Source of the DNA: Candidatus Eiseniibacteriota bacterium
Lineage (GTDB): Bacteria; Desulfobacterota; Binatia; UBA9968
DNA length: 56,561 nucleotides
Assembly (NCBI GenBank): GCA_035559295.1
Contig: DATMBL010000158.1
Span: 1-56,561, forward strand
Direction of reading: 5' to 3'
Shown here: piece after piece, positions 6,585 through 17,399 of the stretch
Layout of the letters: each line of letters begins with the position of its first letter
Position numbering within the stretch: position 1 is the first letter of the stretch
Program-made: the position numbers and the translations under genes
The notes under the pieces: model-generated
Told to the model about the DNA's origin: nothing
The model's input: only the letters and a program-made list of their open reading frames with translations
Databases searched by the model: none

Positions 6585-7907
6585 TCAAAAAGCGTAGCTC
6601 AAGGAAAGCGCGACAAAATTATTGAAGGTGGTAAATTTGTCGCGTCCCGGAACCCCGAGAAAAGGAATGCCCGTCGCCGGAATCCCTTCGAGCTCGACGT
6701 TTCGCGCGCGCCTGGTCTTATAAAGCGCCGCCATATATCCCACATCGACCGAGATCCTTCCAACGTGATAACCCACGCCCGCGTTCAGGGTGAGAATGTC
6801 GGCGCCGGGGATCGCCGGGTTTAGCCTTCGCTCGGGGATCGGCGTCTCATCCAAAGTAATCCCTGCGCGAATTTCCCACGCGGCGGTGAGCTTGTAGAAT
6901 GCTCCGAGCCGAAAAACGCTCGTGCTCTTCCATTCCTGCGGTAGACTGAAGCCCGCGACCGGCGCACCGAGAAAACGCGGTCTGGGCGAGAACGTCGCGC
7001 CAAAGCGGGCAAACTCCTCCCAGCGGACATGCTCGTAAACAAACTCGGCGCCGAGAAACGGCGTGATTTGCCAGAACACGCCGAGATCGATGACGGGGGG
7101 CAGCGGAAGCGGCCGTACCTCGGCACTCGTAGCGGCGATCGAAAAGGCGCCTTCGAGTTTCACGCGCGCCTCTCTAAATCGTAAATCCGTGCGAGACCGG
7201 TAGCTAAAGCCCAGCTTTATCCGATCCACAGGTTTGAACAGGATACCGAGATTGTACGCGAACGCATGCGTCGTATCGGTAATGCGCATTCGTCCTTCGA
7301 GGCCGATCGGAGCGGTGCATCCCGTGATCGGATCGAAGCACAACGCGCGCGAAAATAACCCTGTGGCATGGACGAAACTCGCGCCGGCGCCGATGGACAG
7401 CTGTTTAAAAGGGCTCCAGGAAAAGGCCGGCGTCACGTAGAGCGTTCTCAGCTCCGTGCGCTGCGCCGCGAAGCGCGCAAAGCCCGCTTCGTACGTTGTC
7501 GCCAACCCAAATGGCGTGTATGCGCCGAGGCCGAAAGTGACGTTGCTTCCGGGGAGATGATAATTGACAAACAGCGCCGCGAGAAAGTTGTCGTCGTGGA
7601 GGTTACGGGCCTCGCGCGCTCTATTTTCGACGCTGTTGATGACGTTGATGTAACTTCCGTTGAGCAACAGTACGTTGCCGTCGACCTCGCGCAACGCCGC
7701 CGGGTTGTAATAGACGGCCGACGGGTCGTCTACACCGGCAGTCAAAGCGTTGGCCATACCGAGGCCCTTTGCGGTTTGGTGCGGGATCATAAAGCCGCCG
7801 GCATGACACCGATCATATGCGATGACCGCTCCCAGCAGCACGGCGAGTAGCAATCCGAGCGCAATTTGGCGTCGCGAACGCCAAGGCATGATGTCCAAGT
7901 TGCCCAT
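6585..7907 (-). CDS. Outer-membrane transport protein, OMPP1/FadL/TodX family
   Basis: 440 aa. It has an N-terminal hydrophobic signal region, a YYNPAAL-type motif near the N-terminus, a beta-strand-like alternating pattern and a C-terminal aromatic residue (SLSYAF). Confidence 0.8.
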   Translation of the reverse strand: MGNLDIMPWRSRRQIALGLLLAVLLGAVIAYDRCHAGGFMIPHQTAKGLGMANALTAGVDDPSAVYYNPAALREVDGNVLLLNGSYINVINSVENRAREARNLHDDNFLAALFVNYHLPGSNVTFGLGAYTPFGLATTYEAGFARFAAQRTELRTLYVTPAFSWSPFKQLSIGAGASFVHATGLFSRALCFDPITGCTAPIGLEGRMRITDTTHAFAYNLGILFKPVDRIKLGFSYRSRTDLRFREARVKLEGAFSIAATSAEVRPLPLPPVIDLGVFWQITPFLGAEFVYEHVRWEEFARFGATFSPRPRFLGAPVAGFSLPQEWKSTSVFRLGAFYKLTAAWEIRAGITLDETPIPERRLNPAIPGADILTLNAGVGYHVGRISVDVGYMAALYKTRRARNVELEGIPATGIPFLGVPGRDKFTTFNNFVALSLSYAF

Positions 7908-8066
7908 GTGTTCGGCCCCCGGCGCAAATGTGATTATGAACGCGGGTCTATATCAAAGGATGCAGCCTGTATACAAACGCAGCATTGCCGAGCCCATGGG
8001 GAGCGCACGCCGGATTCCTCACGGGTTATAGATATATATGGATAGAGCCAACAGGTGGAGAGAACC

Positions 8067-8095
8067 TTGACTAACAGTGCCAACTGCTGTATAGG
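8067..8095 (+). promoter_or_regulatory. Sigma70-type promoter candidate (TTGACT-17 nt-TATAGG) upstream of the HTH/VTC/MFS genes
   Basis: The hexamers were read directly from the sequence. The site lies in an AT-rich intergenic region about 40 nt before the ATG at 8137. Confidence 0.35.
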
Positions 8096-8136
8096 AGTGC
8101 GAACTTCTACACAGAATAGCCATATATTGCGTTAAA

Positions 8137-8328
8137 ATGCACGAAACTCTTTTGACCACAGACGAACTCGCCAGCTACTTGAAAGTTGACCGATTTACGA
8201 TATATCGGCTCGTCGCGAGGAAGAAAATTCCAGCCTTCCGCGTCGGCAACCAATGGCGGTTTAAGAAAGCTTTGATCGACGCGTGGCTGCTTGAGAACTC
8301 AACTCTCCGTTCGAAGCGATCGACTTGA
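8137..8328 (+). CDS. Small helix-turn-helix DNA-binding protein (excisionase/MerR-like HTH family)
   Basis: 63 aa. The pattern LLTTDELASYLKVDRFTIYRLVARKKIPAFRVGNQWRFKKALIDAWL is the typical excisionase-family HTH signature. Confidence 0.7.
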   Translation: MHETLLTTDELASYLKVDRFTIYRLVARKKIPAFRVGNQWRFKKALIDAWLLENSTLRSKRST

Positions 8329-8352
8329 GGCGAGGCTTAGGAGTACGGGAAC

Positions 8353-9252
8353 ATGGCCAGTCAATTCAAGACGCCGAACGATATGAGCATTCAATGCCCT
8401 GGATCCGACACATCGGTCTCCGAACCGAATTTCCAGGATCGGATCGAGCGTAATTACTTGATCGGCCTCGTTGAGAGCAGCACGGGTATGCTATGGCGGC
8501 AACTGGGTGAATACCTCACCGGGTATGGGTTTCATCCGATCTACAACATCACATGTGTCGGTAGCGTTTATTTTGATAACCGTGACTTTGATCTAACGCG
8601 TTTCACCATTCTGAATGGCGGTCGTCACATTCTTGTTCGGCTTCGGGCGTATGAGAGCTATGGCGAAGCACCGAAGCCTATATTGCATTATTGGGTTGAA
8701 GTAAAAATCAGAGAAAAAGAACGATGGAGGAAAAAGAGATTTAGACTGGATCGGCGGGATCTTGCTGGTTTATTAACGGGCGGGGATCCTGGTCGAAGCC
8801 TCTTTGAATCGAATGCGGTTTCCTCGGTCGCGGTGAGACAACTGTATCGTGAAACACAGGAGACCATCTTAACGAACGGCCTCAGGCCGATACTTTTACT
8901 AACGTATCGGAGGCTAGCTTTTCAAAACGACACAGAACGAGTTTGTCTCGATTCCGACATAAGATATTACCACGTTGACGAAGACGTCTACACTTACGAT
9001 TCGTGGAAGTATCCTATCCAAGAACCAGCCGGGAAATCACGAAAGGTAATTTTAGAACTTAAGTATCCCGATGGCGCGCTTCCGGTCTGGTTAGAGAGTC
9101 TCGAACAGCGGTACCCAATCACGTTGACGAATTTCTCCAAATACGTGGAGGGAATGGGCGTTTTGTTTCAGGGGCCGCTTAGAAGCCATAGAGAAGCGAC
9201 CTACTTTCTGCCGCGGATCGAGACTTACATGCTCAATTCTGAACGACTCTAG
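8353..9252 (+). CDS. VTC-domain (CYTH-like triphosphate-tunnel / polyphosphate-polymerase-like) protein
   Basis: 299 aa. The hallmarks of bacterial VTC-domain proteins appear in order: E-x-N/K-Y-L, SVYFDNRDFDL, VRLRAY, WVEVKIREK..KKRFRL, LTYRRLAF, VILELKY and the C-terminal FSKYVEGM. Confidence 0.65.
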   Translation: MASQFKTPNDMSIQCPGSDTSVSEPNFQDRIERNYLIGLVESSTGMLWRQLGEYLTGYGFHPIYNITCVGSVYFDNRDFDLTRFTILNGGRHILVRLRAYESYGEAPKPILHYWVEVKIREKERWRKKRFRLDRRDLAGLLTGGDPGRSLFESNAVSSVAVRQLYRETQETILTNGLRPILLLTYRRLAFQNDTERVCLDSDIRYYHVDEDVYTYDSWKYPIQEPAGKSRKVILELKYPDGALPVWLESLEQRYPITLTNFSKYVEGMGVLFQGPLRSHREATYFLPRIETYMLNSERL

Positions 9253-9274
9253 CCGAGCCTCCGAAAAAAACTCC

Positions 9275-10462
9275 GTGAAGACGTATAAACAGACGATGGG
9301 TGTTCTTGCCATCGGATATTGGAGCCAAGCTCTAACCAACGGAGCTCTGAGAGTTGTGGTACCTATTTACTTCGCTGCGACCGGAGTGCCCCTTTCTAAA
9401 ATCGCATTTCTATTCTTTCTGTTTAAATTTGCTGAGATCTTTGCCCCTGCGGGTATAGGTCTGATGCTTAACCGCGTAGGATATAAAGTAACTTTTGTAA
9501 CCGCTTTGGCACTCCACAGTGTAATTTCATTGTTTTATTCGGCTCCCGGGTTTGCACTGGTTTATGTCGAACGGTTTACGCGTGGACTGCTTTACATGGC
9601 GGATATCACGGCAGTCTACGTAAAGCATTTTTCTCCCAAGCATAAACAACGGTTTCTCATTAATGCCATTCTCGGACTAAAGGAGGCGAGCAAAGGAATT
9701 GGAATGATCGCAGGCGGGCTGCTGATTGTCTATCTCACGATCGAGAATACGCTCGCAATCTTTGCGCTCTGTACGGGTTTATCGGCGCTTTTTGCAGCGT
9801 GGTTTCTGCCTGACCTTAAAGAAGAAGCCAGGCTGCCGGTACTGAGAATCTGGGGTGCGGTCGATACGAGGGTAAAAACGCTCGGGTTAGGATTTGGATT
9901 GCTGAACGGTGCTCTCGATGCCTGGGGCGTCGTCGTGCTGCCAATTTACATGACAACGGTGCTCGGAATGACCCCGGGGTTTGTGGGTACAGTCATGATG
10001 GGGGAGTATATTTTCCAGGGGCTCATCGTTGCATGCTTCGCAAGGTGGGTTAATCTATCCTGGGCGCCTAGAAAGTTATTGATCTTAGGAGCCTTTTTGT
10101 TGATTCCGGTCACAATTGCCCTGTCTTTTGCGACCGCTCTTTACCCTTTGCTGCTGGGAATATTCATTTATATGTTTCTCTTCAGCGCGTCAATGGTTTA
10201 CTATAATCATCTTATGCTGGACTTCGCCAGTGAGGAGAAAACATCTCTCGACCTGGCTACGTACACAACCTTGACCAATATATTTAAGCCAATTGGGGTC
10301 TTTATTTCAGGGTTCCTCGCTGAATCGATGGGATACAGTTGGGCTTACTACTTTGCTGCTATAATGACCCTTGCTTCCGCCTTGACATGCATCGCTCTTC
10401 CAAAGTCGGGTCCTCAGGTAGCTGATGCTGGCGCTTCGAAAGTAAACGTTCAAGTGGCTTAG
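9275..10462 (+). CDS. MFS-type transporter
   Basis: 395 aa with about 12 hydrophobic segments throughout. It has a GTG start and lies 22 nt after the VTC gene. Confidence 0.75.
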   Translation: MKTYKQTMGVLAIGYWSQALTNGALRVVVPIYFAATGVPLSKIAFLFFLFKFAEIFAPAGIGLMLNRVGYKVTFVTALALHSVISLFYSAPGFALVYVERFTRGLLYMADITAVYVKHFSPKHKQRFLINAILGLKEASKGIGMIAGGLLIVYLTIENTLAIFALCTGLSALFAAWFLPDLKEEARLPVLRIWGAVDTRVKTLGLGFGLLNGALDAWGVVVLPIYMTTVLGMTPGFVGTVMMGEYIFQGLIVACFARWVNLSWAPRKLLILGAFLLIPVTIALSFATALYPLLLGIFIYMFLFSASMVYYNHLMLDFASEEKTSLDLATYTTLTNIFKPIGVFISGFLAESMGYSWAYYFAAIMTLASALTCIALPKSGPQVADAGASKVNVQVA

Positions 10463-10471
10463 GGAGGGTTT

Positions 10472-11380
10472 ATGGCTCGCGCTGGGGCTTGTTGGCTTGC
10501 GGCTTTGCTTATTGTTGTGCAACTCGATGTGGTCTTTGCGAACGATAAGAAGGTCCTTGTTTTCGGCCGAGTATTCGACGATCCCGTTAGAGCTATACGG
10601 GATCGTCAGGAGTTCGTGGACTATCTGGCAAGACAGCTGGCGCCCTACGGCATCTCGAGCGGGAAGATACTCGTCGTCGAAAAAATACACATGTTGGCCC
10701 AAGCGCTTCGAGAGGGCAAGGTGGACCTCTTTCATGACAGCGTAGTGCCGACATTGGTGCTCTCGAGACGTGCAGGGGCAATTCCGCTTCTAAGGCAATG
10801 GAAATTTGGCACGCCCGATTACCAGGGGCTTATCGTAGTGAGGAAGCACAGTGGTATCAATTCTCTTGCTGATCTAAAAGGCAAAGTAATTGCTTTCGAA
10901 GAAGCGCATTCCACTTCCGCCACCGTGCTTCCGCGGATGCTTCTAGAGCAGCACGGGTTGGATTTGATGGAAATCAAAACCCCCGGCTCGCCTAACCCAA
11001 ACGCAGTCGGTTATTTTTACGGCAGCGACGGCAATTCAATTAATGTTTTGATCACCGGCCGCGCGGATGCGGGCACAACCATTCACCGGGAATTCGACCG
11101 GTTGCGACCAGAAATCCGGGACTCGTTGAAACTGCTAGCCGCGACCGAATCCGTTCCAAGAAACATTGTAGCGGTTCGCAAGGATCTCGATCCGCGGCTA
11201 ATCAACGCAATAAAGGAAGTTTTGGTCAATATGGACAAAACACCGGAAGGTAAACGTGTGCTACAAGCGACACAGAATACAACTAAATTTGATCCTATCC
11301 CTCCAGAATCAGTCGCACAGTTGAATCGAATTGAAAAGTACGTTTTTTCATCGCTGGGTAAAGAGGTAGATTCGTGGTAG
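10472..11380 (+). CDS. Periplasmic substrate-binding protein, PhnD-like (phosphate/phosphite/phosphonate SBP fold)
   Basis: 302 aa with a signal-like N-terminus. It shows the PhnD-type pattern (VLVFGRV...FVDYLARQL...GKVDL...YQGLIVVRKHSGINSLADLKGKVIAFEE..STSATVLP). No ABC permease or ATPase is adjacent, and it sits directly upstream of a sensor kinase. Confidence 0.7.
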   Translation: MARAGACWLAALLIVVQLDVVFANDKKVLVFGRVFDDPVRAIRDRQEFVDYLARQLAPYGISSGKILVVEKIHMLAQALREGKVDLFHDSVVPTLVLSRRAGAIPLLRQWKFGTPDYQGLIVVRKHSGINSLADLKGKVIAFEEAHSTSATVLPRMLLEQHGLDLMEIKTPGSPNPNAVGYFYGSDGNSINVLITGRADAGTTIHREFDRLRPEIRDSLKLLAATESVPRNIVAVRKDLDPRLINAIKEVLVNMDKTPEGKRVLQATQNTTKFDPIPPESVAQLNRIEKYVFSSLGKEVDSW

Positions 11381-11389
11381 CATCGGCGC

Positions 11390-12898
11390 ATGAATCTCCG
11401 GGGACGGTTTAGCCTCAAGTTAAAGATTTTTGTTTTTGCTGGGCTTTTCTTTCTCGCCGCAATCGGCACCCTCACTTTTTTCACCATTCGTTTCCAACGA
11501 GAGCTGCTGTTAAGACAAATGGGCGAACGGGCCAAGGCGGGAATCAGCCTGATGGAGCTGAGCGTCACCGGGGCTCTTTACAGGCTCGATACGTATCGAT
11601 TGGAAACTATTGCTCGGGAGGCCAAAGCTCTACCTAACGTGGATTATGCCTACATTTTTGATGAGAAAGGAAGAATCGTCGGGGACTTTCACGAAAATCA
11701 GAGTCACCTTTTTACGACATTCACTGATGCCCTTGGTAAGCGAATTTTGAATTCCGACAAAATCCTGGTGCAGATCGATCATGAAAAGGAGATCCTGGAT
11801 ATTTCGAAGCCCGTATGGTTGGGCAATCAGAAACTGGGAGGCATTCGTCTAGGCTTCGATTTGAAGCCGATACTTGAGGAAATCAAAAGAGCTTCGCTGA
11901 GGGCATTGGCGATTTCAGCCGCTATTTTGATAAGCGGCTTAATTGTTATCTTCGTCGTCACCACGCGACTGACCAAGCCGATCGAAAGGCTTACTGTGGC
12001 CGCTAAGCGGATCGAAAGCGGCGATCTTCAGTATCGCGTTGGGATCCAAAGAGACGACGAAATCGGTACGCTGGCCGTGGCCTTTGATCAGATGGCCGAG
12101 CGCTTGATGCAGCGGGAGAGAGAGCTCAAGGAATCGCAGGATATCCTGCGACGCGCCGACCGGCTCAGTTCGCTCGGCTTGCTAACCGCCGGGCTGGCGC
12201 ACGAGATTCGCAATCCGTTGGTTGCCATCCGGACCTTTACCCAATTACTCCCCGAGCGCTACCAAGATGCCGAGTTTCGGGAGGGCTTTCAGGGCCTCGC
12301 GCTCAAGGAAGTGGACCGGATATGCGGGCTGATCAACGATCTGCTGAGCTTCGCGCGGCCATCGCGCCCAAACGTAGCGGAAGAAAACCTCAACGACGTC
12401 GTCGATTCGATCGCCCGAATTCTCGAAACCGAAGCAAAAGAAAAAGGCGTCGAGATCGTTCGCAACTACGCCGCGAATCTGCCCAAAGTTTGGATTGACA
12501 GAGAGCAGATGAAGCAGGTATTTATGAATGTCGTTCTGAATGCCATTCAGGCGATGAAAGAGGGAGGTTCGCTTTTCATATCAACCCGCGTGCTCACGAG
12601 AGAAGAGGCCGGCGATGGCGGCCTGTTTCTCCAGGTGGAGATTCGCGATACCGGCGTCGGCATCCCAGAGGAGAATCTCGAGCATATCTTTGATCCGTTC
12701 TTCACCAGCAAGGATGAGGGAAGCGGGCTCGGCTTGTCGATCTCGCATCAAATCGTTCAGGAGCATGGCGGCTATATTGTGGTTGAAAGCAAGGTCGGCA
12801 AAGGAACGACGTTCTTCATCAACCTGCCGGTCGGAAAACAGATTCGCCCTTCAAGCAACGGTCGAGCGATAAATGAAGCGAATCTTAATCATCGATGA
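11390..12898 (+). CDS. Sensor histidine kinase (2 TM + periplasmic domain + HAMP + HisKA + HATPase_c)
   Basis: 502 aa. Motifs seen are the H-box LAHEIRNPL, N-box NVVLNAIQA, G1 DTGVGI, F-box FDPFFT and G2 GSGLGLS. The HAMP-like region is TKPIERLTVAAKRIESGDLQYRV. Confidence 0.9.
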   Translation: MNLRGRFSLKLKIFVFAGLFFLAAIGTLTFFTIRFQRELLLRQMGERAKAGISLMELSVTGALYRLDTYRLETIAREAKALPNVDYAYIFDEKGRIVGDFHENQSHLFTTFTDALGKRILNSDKILVQIDHEKEILDISKPVWLGNQKLGGIRLGFDLKPILEEIKRASLRALAISAAILISGLIVIFVVTTRLTKPIERLTVAAKRIESGDLQYRVGIQRDDEIGTLAVAFDQMAERLMQRERELKESQDILRRADRLSSLGLLTAGLAHEIRNPLVAIRTFTQLLPERYQDAEFREGFQGLALKEVDRICGLINDLLSFARPSRPNVAEENLNDVVDSIARILETEAKEKGVEIVRNYAANLPKVWIDREQMKQVFMNVVLNAIQAMKEGGSLFISTRVLTREEAGDGGLFLQVEIRDTGVGIPEENLEHIFDPFFTSKDEGSGLGLSISHQIVQEHGGYIVVESKVGKGTTFFINLPVGKQIRPSSNGRAINEANLNHR

Positions 12899-14720
12899 GT
12901 CGCCTGCCGTTCGCGAAACCATTGCCCTGATTTTGGGCCGAGAATTCACCGTCATCCAACGATCTCCAGAAAAAGGAGTGGAATTCAGCGACAACGCCGA
13001 AGAAGCGGAATTGATGATCATCGGCGTTGCCCCGGTCATGGGCGGCGTATCGTCCCACTTGGCTCATCTGGCGGCGCGCGCGCCCGTTGCGATTTTGTTC
13101 CTGGTCGATTCCAAAGCCGCCCTGCGTCAGTTTCAACCCGCGGGCAACATCGGTTGTCTCGCGAAGCCGTTCAATCCCTACGAACTGCGCGAAAAGGTCG
13201 GCGAGCTTCTCGCCCGCCGGTCGATCCGGCCGCCGGCGCGCCGGAGCCAGGCCGAAAAACCCAACCCGGATCTAACCCGCTTCATCGAGTATCCCTTTGT
13301 CACCCGAGCGAGTGCGTCTTTGGTTCGAAGGTTCGCGGCAACGCGGCTCCCGCTGCTGATCATGGGCGAAGTCGGCTCCGGTCAGGACCGCGTGGCGCGC
13401 GCGGTGTTCAGCCTCGACCCCCGCGGCGGTACCTGGGTATCGATCAGCGGCGCTGAAGTGACCGCCGCCTCACTTTCCGACCTGAGTCGCGAAATGGCGT
13501 CCTTACCCCTCGATCTGGCCGTGACGATCGCCGTGGAGAGTCTCGACAGCGTGCCGGCGCCGGCCTTTTCACCCCTTGCGAACTTTATCGAGCAGGAACA
13601 AAATAGGCGGGTTTATTGCCGGCTGCTCGCAACCTCCAGGGGCGACCTGTTGGAGCGCGTGTATCGCGGCGAGTTTCCGGATTTCCTTTACTACAGGTTT
13701 GCGACGCTGAAGATCGCATTGGCGCCGCTTCGTGAACGGCAGGACGACCTCGCCGACCTTGCCGCCTGGTTTGCGCGACTGTATGCCGAGCGCCTGGGGT
13801 TGGGTGAGGTCGTATTGTTGCCCGCGGCGGTGGCGCGATTACGCAATTACCTGTGGTTCGGCAACGCGGCTGAAATGGAAACGGTGATTGCGCGAACCCT
13901 GGCAGCGCGACGAAAGCGTGAAATCGACGAAGGCGATCTGATCTTCGACTTTTCCGAAGAGCCGCTCGTCTCGGAACCGGCGGATACTCTCGGCCGCCAG
14001 ATTGCGCCCGAAGGCAACGAGGCGATCCGGACGGTTTCGAGCGCCCCTGCCGCTAGCGGGCTGCGCAACGGCAGATCCGTGGAGTTGCGGGTTTTGATCC
14101 ACGAACTGGCGCACGAGCTTAAAAATCCCATGGTGACGATAAAGACGTTTGCGCAGCTTTTGGGGGAGCGTTACCAGGACGAGACCTTTCGCGCGCGCTT
14201 CCAGGACGTCGTCGACGGCGACATCGAACGCATGGACGATCTCCTCGAGGTCATGATCGAGTTCGCGGATTTCTCCCCTCCGCGTCTCGGACGGCTGCTG
14301 CTCGAAGATCGGCTGCGCTCGACCGTCGAGGAGCTCGGGCAAGAGTTTTCGCGCAAGCAGGTGACGGTCCGCTGGAGCGGCAACGGCAACAAGCGAGAGA
14401 TCCTCGCCGACGCGGCGCATTTAAAATACATTTTCAAAAACGCCCTGTTGGCGATGCTCGCTCAGGCGAAGGCGGGAAGCGATTTCGATATTAGACTCGA
14501 GCGACCCGGCAGCGCTGAGATCGCATACGTGCGCGAAGGCGCGCGTATCATGCCGATCACGCACTATCTCGCCGCCGCGCCCGGAGAAGCCCCCCTCGAG
14601 GTTCTGCCGCTCCGTTTGCTCCTCGCCAAGCAGTTGTTGGAGAGAAACGGCGCGCGAATGACCACCGAGCATTTAGGCGACGAACGCGATCTCATCAAGA
14701 TGGAGTTTACACTTGCTTAG
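12873..14720 (+). CDS. Degenerate chimera: pseudo-receiver + inactive sigma54-type AAA+ domain + HisKA-like DHp + degenerate HATPase-like domain
   Basis: 615 aa, overlapping the kinase gene by 26 nt. The REC-like N-terminus (ILIIDES...KPF) has Gly where the phospho-Asp is expected (LMIIGVAP). The AAA+ core has Walker A GEVGSGQD instead of GESGTGKE, lacks an LDE Walker B (IAVESLD) and has no GAFTGA loop, yet it keeps YYRF..L.PLRERQDD and WFGN..E. The C-terminus has LAHELKNPMVTIKTFAQLLGERYQD, but the G1/G2 ATP-lid motifs are absent. Confidence 0.8.
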   Translation: MKRILIIDESPAVRETIALILGREFTVIQRSPEKGVEFSDNAEEAELMIIGVAPVMGGVSSHLAHLAARAPVAILFLVDSKAALRQFQPAGNIGCLAKPFNPYELREKVGELLARRSIRPPARRSQAEKPNPDLTRFIEYPFVTRASASLVRRFAATRLPLLIMGEVGSGQDRVARAVFSLDPRGGTWVSISGAEVTAASLSDLSREMASLPLDLAVTIAVESLDSVPAPAFSPLANFIEQEQNRRVYCRLLATSRGDLLERVYRGEFPDFLYYRFATLKIALAPLRERQDDLADLAAWFARLYAERLGLGEVVLLPAAVARLRNYLWFGNAAEMETVIARTLAARRKREIDEGDLIFDFSEEPLVSEPADTLGRQIAPEGNEAIRTVSSAPAASGLRNGRSVELRVLIHELAHELKNPMVTIKTFAQLLGERYQDETFRARFQDVVDGDIERMDDLLEVMIEFADFSPPRLGRLLLEDRLRSTVEELGQEFSRKQVTVRWSGNGNKREILADAAHLKYIFKNALLAMLAQAKAGSDFDIRLERPGSAEIAYVREGARIMPITHYLAAAPGEAPLEVLPLRLLLAKQLLERNGARMTTEHLGDERDLIKMEFTLA

Positions 14721-14757
14721 CACGGAAAAGAAACCGGCCCCAGAGAAAAAGAGAGAC

Positions 14758-16152
14758 ATGAGCCAGCCGCTGTTGCTGGTCGTCGATGACGAACTCGGAG
14801 TGCGACAGTCCCTCCAGATGATCTTCAGCAAGTCGTTTCGCGTCGTCGAAGCGAGTTCGGCCGAGGAAGCGCTCCAGAGAGCCAGCGAAGACAGGCCCGA
14901 TATCGTGCTGCTCGACATCGTCATGCCGGGGACGGACGGGCTCGCCGTTCTCAAGCAGCTGAAATCGATGCATCCGGATTGTCAGGTGATCATGTTGACC
15001 GCGCTGAACACAGCGCGTACGGGTTTCACGGCGAAGAGCACAGGAGCGTTCGACTACGTGACCAAGCCTTTCGATGTCGACGAGCTGCGCCTGCGCGTGG
15101 AGCGCGCGATGGAAAAGATTCAACTCTCCAGGGAACTCGAGCGGCTGAAGGAAGAAGTCGGGCGCAAATACGGCGTTGACAACGTTATCGGCAAGTCGAA
15201 GCAGATCGTCGACGTCTTCAAAGCCGTCAGTATGGTGGCCGCCAAAAAGAGCACGGTTTTGATCCACGGCGAGAGCGGCACGGGAAAAGAACTGATCGCG
15301 CGCGCGATTCACTATAACAGCGATCGTCGGGCGAAGCCGTTTGTGGTCGTCAATTGCGCCGCGCTACCCGATACACTCATCGAAAGCGAGCTTTTCGGCT
15401 ACGAAAAGGGCGCGTTTACCAACGCGTCGCAGAAGAAAGTGGGCCGGTTCGAGCTGGCGCACGGCGGCACGTTGTTTCTCGATGAAATCGGCGAATTGAA
15501 TCTGGGAACGCAGGCGAAGTTCCTGAGAGCCGTCGAGCAGGAAACCTTTACCCGTTTGGGCGGCACCGATGAAATCAAGGTGGATGTCCGCGTCATTGCG
15601 GCGAGCAACCGGGATCTGGAGGTCATGGCGAAAGCCGGCGATTTTCGGCCGGACCTCTTTTACCGCCTCAATGTCGTCTCGCTTTATCTGCCGCCGCTCA
15701 GGGAGCGGCGCGACGATATCCCGCTGCTTTTGGATCATTTCCTGCGCCTGAAAGCCAAAGAGCACTCGGTTCCGCCGAAGTCGCTTTCGCCCGAGGTGGT
15801 CGATTTTTTTACCGCGTACTATTGGCCCGGCAACATCCGCGAGCTCGAGAATCTGATCGAGCGGCTGACGATTTTAACGCCTCATGACACGATCATGCTG
15901 CGCGACCTTCCCGAGAGCATGCGCGCGACGGATCAAACCGCGACACTCAAAGAAGACGTTCTGAGCGGCGCCCGGCCATTGAGCGATGCGGTCGATGAGT
16001 TCGAGCGTGAGCTGATCGTCAAAGCCCTGCAGAGGACCGGGTTTAACCAAACCAAAGCGGCTTCATTGCTTGGCACGAGCCGCCGCATCTTGAAGTACCG
16101 GATCGAGAAGCTGAAAATCCACGAGTCCAGCGTCGACGAGGCGAAGTTGTAG
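14758..16152 (+). CDS. Sigma54-dependent response regulator (NtrC family: REC + AAA+ + Fis-type HTH)
   Basis: Motifs seen are LLVVDDE, IVLLDIVMPG and KPF in the receiver. The AAA+ domain has GESGTGKE, GAFTNA (a GAFTGA variant), LFLDEIGEL, FRPDLFYRLNV..LPPLRERRDDI and WPGNIRELEN. The C-terminus has QTKAASLLGTSRRILKYRI. The track ORF begins at a TTG at 14713. I prefer the ATG at 14758, which lies downstream of the preceding stop at 14720. Confidence 0.92.
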   Translation: MSQPLLLVVDDELGVRQSLQMIFSKSFRVVEASSAEEALQRASEDRPDIVLLDIVMPGTDGLAVLKQLKSMHPDCQVIMLTALNTARTGFTAKSTGAFDYVTKPFDVDELRLRVERAMEKIQLSRELERLKEEVGRKYGVDNVIGKSKQIVDVFKAVSMVAAKKSTVLIHGESGTGKELIARAIHYNSDRRAKPFVVVNCAALPDTLIESELFGYEKGAFTNASQKKVGRFELAHGGTLFLDEIGELNLGTQAKFLRAVEQETFTRLGGTDEIKVDVRVIAASNRDLEVMAKAGDFRPDLFYRLNVVSLYLPPLRERRDDIPLLLDHFLRLKAKEHSVPPKSLSPEVVDFFTAYYWPGNIRELENLIERLTILTPHDTIMLRDLPESMRATDQTATLKEDVLSGARPLSDAVDEFERELIVKALQRTGFNQTKAASLLGTSRRILKYRIEKLKIHESSVDEAKL

Positions 16153-16160
16153 ACACAGCT

Positions 16161-16174
16161 GGACAAAATTGTCC
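16161..16174. promoter_or_regulatory. Palindrome GGACAA-AA-TTGTCC, candidate enhancer-binding (UAS) site
   Basis: A perfect 6-2-6 inverted repeat, read directly from the sequence. It lies about 75 nt upstream of the sigma54 promoter match, which is the usual distance range for a bEBP UAS. Confidence 0.35.
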
Positions 16175-16247
16175 CCTCGACTCTCGCCCCTTACCCTTCG
16201 CGGCCAAGATTCCGGTTGTAAATTAACCTCTTAAGTCCGCCCTCTGC

Positions 16248-16263
16248 TGGCATGCCGGTTGCT
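16248..16263 (+). promoter_or_regulatory. Sigma54 (-24/-12) promoter candidate TGGCATG-N4-TTGCT
   Basis: The sequence cTGGCATGccggTTGCT matches the consensus YTGGCACG-N4-TTGCW in all invariant positions (GG and GC 10 nt apart). It sits immediately upstream of the ATG at 16278, which has no Shine-Dalgarno sequence. Confidence 0.55.
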
Positions 16264-16277
16264 TCGCTTTCTCCGGC

Positions 16278-17399
16278 ATGGATGCGCATAAGGCCAATAT
16301 CCTGATTGTCGATGACGAAATGGGGCCGCGGGAATCGCTTAAAATGATCCTGCACCCGTATTATAACGTCCACGTAGCCGACCGCGGTGCGCGCGCCTTC
16401 GAGATTCTCAAACAATACCCCATCGATCTCGTCACGTTGGATCTCAAGATGCCCGGCCTGACCGGCATCAATGTGCTCGAGAAGGTGAAGCAGCACGATC
16501 CCGATATCGAGGCGATCATCATCACCGGATACGGCTCCCTCGATACCGCCATTGAAGGGCTCCGGCTCGGCGCGTTCGATTACATCTCCAAGCCTTTCGA
16601 CGTCAATCACGTGCTGGCGCTGGTCCGCCGGGGCTTGGAGCGCCGGCGCGCCAAGGCGCGGTTGCGCGAAGTCAAGGCGGATTTTCTCTCCAACGTCTCG
16701 CACGAGCTCCGCACCCCCCTCAGCGTCGTCGTTGGCTTCGTTTATCTGCTGTTGAACCAGGTGATCGGCAAGCTCACCGACGAGCAGCAGAAGGTGCTCG
16801 AGACGGTTTATCGGAATTCAGAAGAGCTGCTCGAGTTGATCGATAACGTGTTGTGGATGACGTCGCTCAATGCGGGCGATAACGATGCCTTCGTCGCTCC
16901 GTTCGACGTGCGCGATGTGATCGAGCAAACCGCCAAACGCTACGAGCGCATTCTGCGAGAGAAGGGCTTGACCCTCAGCATCGAGGGTTGTTCGTCGGCG
17001 CTGCGCATCGTCAATGACCGGTCGAAAATCGAGCGCATCGTTCAGAACATCTTCAGTAACGCCGTGAAGTTTACCGCGCGCGGCGGCATCCGCGTGATCG
17101 CGCGTCCGAGCGCGGCCGGCGGCGTCGAGCTGGAAATCGGCGATACCGGGATTGGTATCGAGCGGGCCAAGTTGGATTCGATTTTTGAGCCGTTTCACCA
17201 GATCGATAGCTCGATCCACCGATCGTTTTCCGGTCTTGGGCTTGGCCTCACGGTGGCGCGCCGGATGGCGGAGCTGATCGGCGGCAGCATCGAGCTCAGC
17301 AGCGAGCCCGGCGTGGGGACGCGCGTAACGGTTAGAGTTCCCTCCAAAGCCGAAGCCGGCACGGCAGCGCTGGCGATCGAGCAGCGGCGCTACGGCTAA
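16278..17399 (+). CDS. Hybrid response regulator / histidine kinase (REC + HisKA + HATPase_c)
   Basis: 373 aa. Motifs seen are ILIVDDE, LVTLDLKMPG, KPF, the H-box SHELRTPL, N-box NIFSNAVKF, G1 DTGIGI and G2 GLGLGLT. Confidence 0.9.
   Translation: MDAHKANILIVDDEMGPRESLKMILHPYYNVHVADRGARAFEILKQYPIDLVTLDLKMPGLTGINVLEKVKQHDPDIEAIIITGYGSLDTAIEGLRLGAFDYISKPFDVNHVLALVRRGLERRRAKARLREVKADFLSNVSHELRTPLSVVVGFVYLLLNQVIGKLTDEQQKVLETVYRNSEELLELIDNVLWMTSLNAGDNDAFVAPFDVRDVIEQTAKRYERILREKGLTLSIEGCSSALRIVNDRSKIERIVQNIFSNAVKFTARGGIRVIARPSAAGGVELEIGDTGIGIERAKLDSIFEPFHQIDSSIHRSFSGLGLGLTVARRMAELIGGSIELSSEPGVGTRVTVRVPSKAEAGTAALAIEQRRYG

Follow-up and report, generated by a model that had tools for sequence, protein, structure and literature searches.

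The DNA considered here, which we refer to as the window, is a stretch of 56,561 nucleotides (contig DATMBL010000158.1 of GenBank assembly GCA_035559295.1) from a Candidatus Eiseniibacteriota bacterium that GTDB places in the Binatia (UBA9968), and whose metagenome-assembled genome (MAG) is 81% complete in 432 contigs. Between about 8.04 and 17.4 kb the window carries a train of same-strand genes (Table 1), which encode, in this order, a small HTH_17 protein, a VTC-domain protein, a major facilitator superfamily (MFS) transporter, a periplasmic binding protein (SBP), a HAMP-containing histidine kinase, a degenerate protein that we call the chimera, an NtrC-type activator and a receiver-kinase hybrid (REC-kinase). 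These gene calls had been proposed in an earlier, sequence-only reading, and matches to hidden Markov model (HMM) profiles agree with all of them. Comparison with related loci shows the segment to be the type II allele of a polymorphic Binatia signalling locus. Its variable slot starts where the HTH gene ends and stops shortly past the HAMP domain of the kinase, and it is occupied by either of two cassettes that are unrelated to each other and have been swapped many times through recombination in the conserved flanks. This arrangement suggests that the chemical signals which enter a single regulatory circuit differ between strains, and the locus shows how modular signalling circuits get rewired in nature. 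We know of no description of a two-component or sigma54 locus in which the entire input side, from enzyme and transporter to co-receptor and sensor domain, comes in two recombining alleles that are not homologous and whose breakpoint falls between HAMP and DHp.

Table 1. Features of the signalling locus and its left flank, in window coordinates
Feature	Position	Strand	Basis or detail
FadL/TodX-family outer-membrane channel	6585..7907	-	Pfam Toluene_X, E 4.5e-55
Predicted sigma70-type promoter	8067..8095	+	TTGACT 8067-8072, 17-nt spacer, TATAGG 8090-8095; sequence reading
TGCCAA-like direct repeats, putative operator	8078..8133	+	10-nt period
HTH_17 (excisionase/MerR-like) DNA-binding protein, 63 aa	8137..8328	+	Pfam HTH_17 E 2e-17; TIGR01764 E 1.4e-17
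Vtc4-like triphosphate-tunnel enzyme, predicted cytoplasmic; type II cassette gene 1	8353..9252	+	Pfam VTC PF09359
MFS transporter, distantly ArsJ-like; type II cassette gene 2	9275..10462	+	Pfam MFS_1 E 1.3e-20
XAC2383-type periplasmic binding protein (SBP), putative kinase co-receptor; type II cassette gene 3	10472..11380	+	Pfam Phosphonate-bd E 2e-49
Kinase sensor half (TM1, ~130-aa periplasmic Cache-like domain, TM2, HAMP); end of type II cassette	11390..12124	+	
Right recombination junction of the cassette	12020..12125	.	Start of type I kinase alignment; GC step
Kinase DHp + CA catalytic core (HisKA, HATPase_c), common to both cassette types	12125..12898	+	Homologous in type I loci
'Chimera' pseudo-enzyme, 615 aa	12873..14720	+	Alignment of 13 orthologues
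NtrC-type sigma54 response regulator (REC + AAA+ + HTH_8)	14713..16152	+	Sigma54_activat E 9e-70
Inverted repeat GGACAAAATTGTCC, putative enhancer (UAS)	16161..16174	+	87 nt upstream of the -24 element
Putative sigma54 -24/-12 promoter TGGCATGCCGGTTGCT	16248..16263	+	One mismatch to consensus
REC-HisKA-HATPase hybrid kinase	16278..17399	+	Pfam REC + HisKA + HATPase_c

Two alternative cassettes in one slot

Loci of the window's type are strongly alike in gene order. Four metagenomic contigs with VTC homologues of 52-69% identity all carry VTC, MFS, SBP, kinase, chimera, activator and REC-kinase in that order, and the same order recurs wherever a contig is long enough (17 genome contigs, the loci of relatives and two further contigs), usually preceded by gltX, glnS, a minus-strand FadL gene and the HTH gene. 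The train lies beside glnS/FadL in more than 25 independent contigs, and its VTC-MFS-SBP-kinase part keeps a fixed order, tight spacing and 45-70% protein identity in all type II loci; the linkage of these four genes, initially thought to be unusual, proved in this neighbourhood survey to be the rule. The related contigs generally go under the names Candidatus Binatia or 'Deltaproteobacteria bacterium'. Three others (L019, L028 and L029) bear the labels Anaerolineales, Verrucomicrobiia and Pyrinomonadaceae, yet have the Binatia synteny and are probably mis-binned, because their glnS is as similar as within the Binatia.

Whereas the chimera is found in 23 of the 25 genomes of the family, VTC is found in only 8. 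The VTC-less loci keep the same frame, with glnS, FadL and the HTH gene on the left and the chimera, activator and REC-kinase on the right, and their slot is filled by what we term the type I cassette: a FabF-like beta-ketoacyl synthase (KAS) of 420-450 aa, in every such locus directly followed by a kinase of ~718 aa composed of a seven-transmembrane (7TM) sensor (HisKA_7TM), GAF, HisKA and HATPase_c. With 461-478 bits, the KAS scores just below the fabF cutoff and is an extra paralogue, the housekeeping FabF (~640 bits) being encoded elsewhere in each genome. Thirteen genomes are of type I and 8-9 of type II, the sole genome with both (G001) being a MAG with 6% contamination, and both types are present within each of two genera. 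In one type I locus, L048 (G024:C25:205588-206796), another FabF-like synthase (518 bits) is encoded in the interval that separates FadL from the HTH gene, in the FadL orientation. In a genome of the sister family (G029; L054 7343-8529), an insertion sequence (IS) element with HTH_Tnp_1 and rve domains sits in the variable slot, and the GAF kinase is truncated and split.

On its right side the cassette ends within the kinase gene. The sensor half of the window kinase, with transmembrane segments at residues 7-35 and 168-198 and a weak sCache_3_2 match, then HAMP, is without homology to the type I kinases, which align to the window kinase only from residue 210-245 on, directly after HAMP (~12.02-12.12 kb). 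The type II loci L015/L018 and the type I locus L048 are almost identical in their core. L018 and L048, which belong to the same genus, share 89% identity (blastn) from kinase residue ~245 through the chimera, activator and REC-kinase, and on the left their glnS, FadL and HTH genes align, whereas nothing is alignable between the HTH gene and kinase residue ~245. With this junction within the kinase gene and a non-homologous cassette in the slot of relatives, the segment is indeed a separable module joined to a conserved cascade, as had been supposed when it was described as an AT-rich module grafted onto a sigma54 cascade. That part of the description stands; the graft is neither recent nor unique, occurring as it does in more than 25 contigs.

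The two cassettes have replaced each other repeatedly. On a tree of the chimera and activator from 28 loci, the cassette type must change 9-10 times, and well-supported branches require at least 7 of these changes; with shuffled labels the figure is 9.5. The type is thus distributed like a freely recombining allele. The type II cassette is itself a mosaic. Among type II loci, the core genes define two clades, X and Y, with 100% support, and VTC, MFS and SBP each fall into two deep allele classes that cross this split (94-100% support).

The right junction coincides with a step in base composition. In 500-nt windows, GC is 0.46-0.52 across ~7.75-12.0 kb and 0.58-0.65 on both sides. Counted from the start of VTC, the cassette (8353-12124, 3,772 nt) has a GC of 0.491, against an assembly mean of 0.598 (standard deviation 0.023, z = -4.67), which is the lowest among 4,753 windows of that size in the 3.8-Mb assembly. 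By gene, GC is 0.50 for HTH, 0.483 for VTC, 0.479 for MFS, 0.507 for SBP, 0.492 for the N-terminal half of the kinase, 0.550 for its C-terminal half and 0.610 for the chimera, with 0.597 for glnS in the left flank; at third codon positions (GC3) it is ~0.52 in the VTC, MFS and SBP genes and 0.73-0.79 in glnS, the chimera, activator and REC-kinase. Within the kinase gene, GC steps from 0.484 (11.5-12.0 kb) to 0.580 (12.0-12.5 kb), at the point where homology to the alternative kinase begins (residue ~210-245). The sequence-only reading had judged by eye that the DNA is AT-richer from ~8.04 to ~12.9 kb, and that composition ramps up within the kinase gene, and had taken this ramp to suggest a mosaic or recombinant origin; the 500-nt windows confirm the step and the ramp, and the breakpoint right after HAMP bears out the inference drawn from the ramp.

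Low GC is not peculiar to the window's cassette. The mean difference between cassette and core is -0.044 in type I and -0.051 in type II loci, with the window at the extreme (-0.099), and across loci the GC of the cassette tracks that of the host. The idea that type II alone is AT-rich, with a host-independent GC, is refuted by these values, both types being 4-5 points below the core and following the host; whichever cassette it holds, the variable region tends to be AT-rich, and the window is only the extreme case. This is what one would expect of a variable segment passed around among relatives whose GC ranges over 0.49-0.63, and the window genome may have got its copy comparatively recently from a lower-GC relative; no close donor for the window cassette was found.

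A conserved signalling core and its promoters

The chimera, the first gene wholly within the conserved part, is a conserved pseudo-enzyme. Pfam recognises a weak REC, a degenerate sigma54-type AAA and a HisKA domain; the pseudo-receiver has Gly in the position of the phospho-acceptor Asp, the AAA+ part has Gln in place of the Walker A Lys and is without the GAFTGA loop, and the CA domain is without G-boxes, while the H-box (HELKNPM) is intact and highly conserved. Of 301 genomes of the class, 75 encode a full-length homologue. In all 13 distant loci examined (L091-L104), the chimera forms a triad with an NtrC-type activator and a REC-kinase, and neither a kinase nor a cassette precedes it. Because the triad is found in such distant families, the cascade core is ancient, and family f1 put a kinase with exchangeable inputs in front of it; the pseudo-enzyme, with its combination of REC, AAA+ and H-box, and the class-wide triad together make up an uncharacterised signalling module. 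A second, divergently transcribed activator is often present upstream of the distant triads. Two long-read type II loci (L031 14535-15134 and L064 11458-12324) have lost most of the chimera gene and kept the kinase, activator and REC-kinase.

The activator qualifies by its sequence features as an NtrC-type enhancer-binding protein with a predicted sigma54 target. Its Walker A (GESGTGK) and Walker B (LFLDEI) motifs are intact, and the sigma54-contact loop (residues ~232-237) reads GAFTNA, not GAFTGA, in all family orthologues, the F and T being kept; in the distant triads the loop is GAFTDA or GSFTDA. Behind the activator gene lie the putative enhancer, kept as GGACAA-N2-TTGTYC in closer loci, and a sigma54-type promoter, kept as TGGCAY-N5-TTGC at the same place before the REC-kinase gene in 13 of 13 loci. 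The genome encodes rpoN, and this combination of enhancer and promoter is the sole perfect one in it; a genome-wide search for further activator targets (GGACA-N4-TGTCC with a sigma54 promoter) gave candidates with two mismatches on contigs C219, C318, C341 and C386, none of them convincing. The REC-kinase start codon is fixed by a conserved N-terminus (MDAxKxxILIVDDEMGPRE) and lies 14 nt past the -12 element, so that the transcript would be nearly leaderless; the spacing is the same in most close loci, and four more distant ones have leaders of ~40 nt.

The operon that includes the AT-rich module has a promoter of a different kind. A near-consensus sigma70-type promoter is predicted ~65 nt upstream of the HTH start, and TTGACT-N16-18-TATAnn is kept at the same place in 19 loci of types I and II, whereas no sigma54 element was found upstream of the operon. 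The module, which had been proposed to be under sigma54 control, is thus predicted to be transcribed from a conserved sigma70-type promoter, and the REC-kinase gene appears to be the only visible sigma54-dependent target in the cluster. Because the sole sigma54 promoter precedes the REC-kinase gene, the AT-rich module is the input of the cascade and not an output regulated through sigma54.

The promoter overlaps a series of direct repeats, which in the window consist of degenerate copies (8078 TGCCAA, 8098 TGCGAA, 8108 TACACA, 8118 AGCCAT and 8128 TGCGTT) that reach across the -10 element and the transcription start as far as the ribosome-binding site. With at most one mismatch, TGCCAA occurs 41 times in the 19 loci, 5-fold more than in 1000 shuffles (8.2 +/- 2.7, maximum 22). 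The HTH_17 protein, encoded by the first gene of the operon, is a candidate binder of these repeats. Its gene is absent in L011, L014, L023, L027, L029 and L031, where the promoter is retained, and the repeats are retained in several lineages without it. The FadL gene, divergent from the operon, forms a conserved left flank that is syntenic with both cassette types. Elsewhere in the genome, at C219:1329 (+), a sigma54-like promoter is followed by a small HTH_17-type gene and a gene for an 880-aa membrane sensor protein, which makes this a second operon of the genome headed by a small HTH gene.

Enzyme, transporter and receptor of the type II cassette

To our knowledge, bacterial VTC-domain proteins are without an established function, and a search of the literature on bacterial DUF4956/VTC proteins turned up nothing functional. 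The assignment of the window protein to this family is secure (PF09359, E 7e-30, 104.7 bits against a cutoff of 23), as had been anticipated, and within the family it is Vtc4-like in sequence and predicted fold: profile comparison with the PDB places Vtc4 (E 4e-13) ahead of Vtc2/3, and an AlphaFold (AF2) model with a pLDDT of 83 has Vtc4 structures as its top nine Foldseek matches (3g3r/3g3q, E ~1e-15, TM-score 0.63-0.67 over ~287 columns), other tunnel enzymes ranking far behind. Cryo-electron microscopy of yeast Vtc4 shows the triphosphate to be contacted by K200, R264, R266, K281, Y359, R361, S457 and K458 and Mn2+ to be chelated by E426, K458 being the sole listed residue that differs in the inactive Vtc2/3 (bioRxiv 10.1101/2023.01.27.525886). 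Of these nine critical residues, eight are conserved in the window protein, an HMM alignment to 3g3q giving R96, R98, K118, Y185, R187, E235, S262 and K263 as the counterparts of R264, R266, K281, Y359, R361, E426, S457 and K458. In 26 homologues the tunnel residues are invariant or nearly so, except at the S457 position, which is Leu in many.

In contrast to the yeast protein, the window protein is a single domain of ~280 aa without transmembrane segments, without SPX and without the VTC transmembrane domain; identity is ~20%, the likeness being one of sequence and fold, and the membrane partner would be a separate MFS protein. The succession of a VTC gene and a membrane transporter gene nevertheless recalls the coupled synthesis and translocation of the yeast complex. 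Residues 1-25 of the open reading frame are not conserved and have a pLDDT below 50, homologues begin near residue 22-24, and translation probably starts ~20 codons further on than 8353. In locus L024 (6334-8125, which is G015:C79), and also in L004/L009, a tandem pair of VTC paralogues with 33% identity stands ahead of the MFS gene, an arrangement that recalls the heterodimer of Vtc4 and Vtc2-3 tunnel domains.

The MFS protein aligns end to end with the NCBIfam model of ArsJ (NF033734). ArsJ is an organoarsenical efflux MFS protein whose gene is typically linked to GAPDH or ars genes; the window protein scores 84.8 bits against a cutoff of 400, and there are no ars or gap genes in the window cluster, so that we do not regard it as ArsJ. 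Its invariant residues are R26, E99, R100, R103, D215 and D326, with Arg in the first and fourth transmembrane segments and a variant of motif A.

The SBP has a signal peptide, a GRxxDDP motif and an HSTSA oxyanion motif. Its best match in both sequence and fold is XAC2383, with E values of 1e-28 (phmmer) and 3e-31 (profile) to 5ub3 and, for an AF2 model of pLDDT 89.5, Foldseek TM-scores of 0.81-0.87 and root mean square deviations of 2.1-2.6 A; one of the matched entries, 5UB7, is an ATP complex according to its PDB title. ArrX, PtxB, PhnD and AioX rank behind, and the curated models TIGR03431 (65.9 bits against 261) and TIGR01098 (78 against 112) are not reached. As no ATP-binding cassette (ABC) permease or ATPase genes were found in the cluster or in any syntenic locus examined, and the scores are under the cutoffs, a PhnD-type component of an ABC transporter was rejected. 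The sequence-only reading had taken the protein for a PhnD-like SBP without an ABC partner, used as a co-sensor of the kinase; this agrees with its assignment, by sequence and modelled fold, to the XAC2383 co-receptor subfamily, as a predicted secreted protein encoded beside a Cache-like/HAMP kinase.

XAC2383 of Xanthomonas citri is the transporter-less periplasmic partner of a membrane diguanylate cyclase, the two forming the XAC2383-XAC2382 bipartite receptor (PDB 5UB3-5UB7; Teixeira and colleagues, 2018, J Biol Chem, as cited in PMC12271599). The window pair resembles it in the PhnD fold, in the GRxxDDP and STS motifs, in having no ABC transporter and in the position of the gene beside that of a HAMP-containing membrane signalling protein that also has a periplasmic domain; it differs in that the partner is a histidine kinase leading to a sigma54 activator and not a diguanylate cyclase, in an identity of only ~27%, and in being co-inherited with a tunnel enzyme and an MFS protein. 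PhnD-like SBPs that act as co-sensors of histidine kinases are also known from the AioX/AioS/AioR and ArrX/ArrS/ArrR systems, AioR being a sigma54-dependent activator. Although ArrX and AioX are among the matches of the window SBP, they are weaker than XAC2383, no arsenic oxidoreductase genes lie near the window cluster, and the window cascade has two extra members, the pseudo-enzyme and the REC-kinase.

What the cassettes may signal

Because enzyme and sensor domain move together, and their linkage survives in a freely recombining region, the two are probably functionally matched in each cassette. For type II, we propose a model in which the Vtc4-like enzyme would make a phosphoanhydride product, such as short polyphosphate or a related polyanion, from a nucleoside triphosphate, and the MFS protein would export it. 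The SBP would capture the product, or a related phosphorylated ligand, in the periplasm and dock on the Cache domain of the kinase, which would then phosphorylate the activator in a step modulated by the chimera; the activator and sigma54 would in turn switch on the REC-kinase as a second signalling tier. A polymorphic locus with a make-export-sense cassette of this kind is, in our view, the best explanation of the whole, with about an even chance of being right, and a phosphorylated ligand for type II is plausible. That the VTC protein has stayed locked to a transporter and a receptor-kinase over deep divergence also provides a concrete hypothesis for what a bacterial Vtc4-like enzyme might do. 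A stronger version, in which the locus holds two mutually exclusive 'chemical dialects' swapped by recombination, namely a self-made extracellular polyphosphate-type signal, for instance short polyphosphate or a nucleotide polyphosphate (Vtc4-like enzyme, MFS, XAC2383-type receptor-kinase), and a FabF-like lipid-type signal read by the 7TM-GAF kinase, seems to us rather doubtful.

Several points weigh against this model. Enzyme activity, ligand and export direction are predictions from sequence, fold and gene linkage, and the MFS protein could be an importer. The equivalent of Vtc4 K200 is probably Asn34 in the window's allele class and Lys34 in the sister class, strand beta1 reading DRIERNY and DRIEKKY, respectively; this register would follow from strand position, and a profile of the N-terminus only retrieved no Vtc4. 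Members of PF12974 bind phosphonate, phosphite, arsenic oxyanions and even sterols, and the family alone names no ligand; XAC2383, too, reportedly binds pterins (Teixeira and colleagues, 2018). The VTC allele classes reassort freely relative to those of MFS and SBP, which speaks against a tight co-specificity of enzyme and receptor, and some type II loci are without the chimera (L031, L064) or without the HTH gene. Finally, since the operon that bears the enzyme has no sigma54 promoter, there would be no classical autoinduction loop.

The most serious alternative, albeit an unlikely one, is a phosphorus-nutrient system, in which the SBP would sense phosphate, phosphonate, phosphite or polyphosphate, the MFS protein would import it, the tunnel enzyme would store it as polyphosphate or hydrolyse it, and the sigma54 cascade would adjust metabolism. 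The SBP does keep the oxyanion STS motif, its relatives bind phosphorus and arsenic oxyanions and ATP, the residues of the Vtc4 polyphosphate polymerase are kept in the VTC protein, and PPK1 and PPK2 are absent from the window genome (G000), its 97%-complete congener and most of the family, so that VTC could be the sole polyphosphate synthase. Across the family, however, the presence of VTC shows no clear pattern complementary to the absence of PPK1 and PPK2, and compensation for their loss was rejected on this ground; no pho, pst or phn genes lie nearby; VTC and MFS are not a regulated output, given their predicted sigma70 co-transcription with the sensor; and most relatives have a ketoacyl synthase and a 7TM-GAF sensor in the same slot. 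With a lipid-type enzyme and sensor in most relatives, the locus is not dedicated to phosphorus, and phosphorus handling, which the sequence-only reading had put forward as its purpose, does not hold for the locus as a whole.

A shade less likely again is that only the sensors matter, SBP with Cache/HAMP in type II and 7TM-GAF in type I, and that VTC-MFS and the KAS are unrelated accessories. The independent reassortment of the VTC classes would suit such passengers, as would the recombination hot spot that the variable segment represents and the IS element found in it in one genome (L054). Against this, the invariable order and close packing of the VTC, MFS, SBP and kinase genes in type II loci and the constant position of the KAS directly before the kinase in type I loci have persisted across deep divergence in a freely recombining region, which argues for selection for linkage. 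Recent horizontal acquisition from outside the lineage, as a genomic or defence island, is very improbable: the segment is the lowest in GC of the assembly, with a dip twice the norm, and starts with an excisionase-type HTH gene (a weak MADS1 match, PADLOC giving a weak mad1 match for the HTH protein and nothing else), yet neither an integrase nor direct repeats are present, the junction lacks a tRNA, both cassette types have the HTH gene and promoter in their conserved flank, all homologues found sit in the same Binatia synteny, and cassette GC tracks host GC.

The pattern of the locus parallels agrBDCA of Staphylococcus and comQXPA of Bacillus, quorum-sensing loci whose pherotype polymorphism takes in the genes that make the signal together with the sensor part of the kinase and stops at the junction of sensor and kinase. 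As in agr and comQXP, the variable block consists of enzyme genes and a sensor half, the kinase core and regulator are conserved, and the alleles are incongruent with the phylogeny. In contrast to them, the alleles of the window locus are non-homologous in enzymes, folds and sensors, and no autoinduction promoter was seen in it; the likeness lies in the genes. For this abundant soil lineage, which is uncultured, the pattern of polymorphism hints at diversifying selection and hence at a role in social behaviour or recognition. A second parallel is with PrsK/PrsR of the PEP-CTERM/exosortase system (TIGR02916/TIGR02915), in that PrsK and the type I kinase can be aligned over their full length and the activator scores 399 bits on the PrsR model. 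Neither reaches its curated cutoff (165 against 300 for the kinase, 399 against 502 for the activator), exosortase genes were not seen, and the type II allele of the window has a different sensor altogether.

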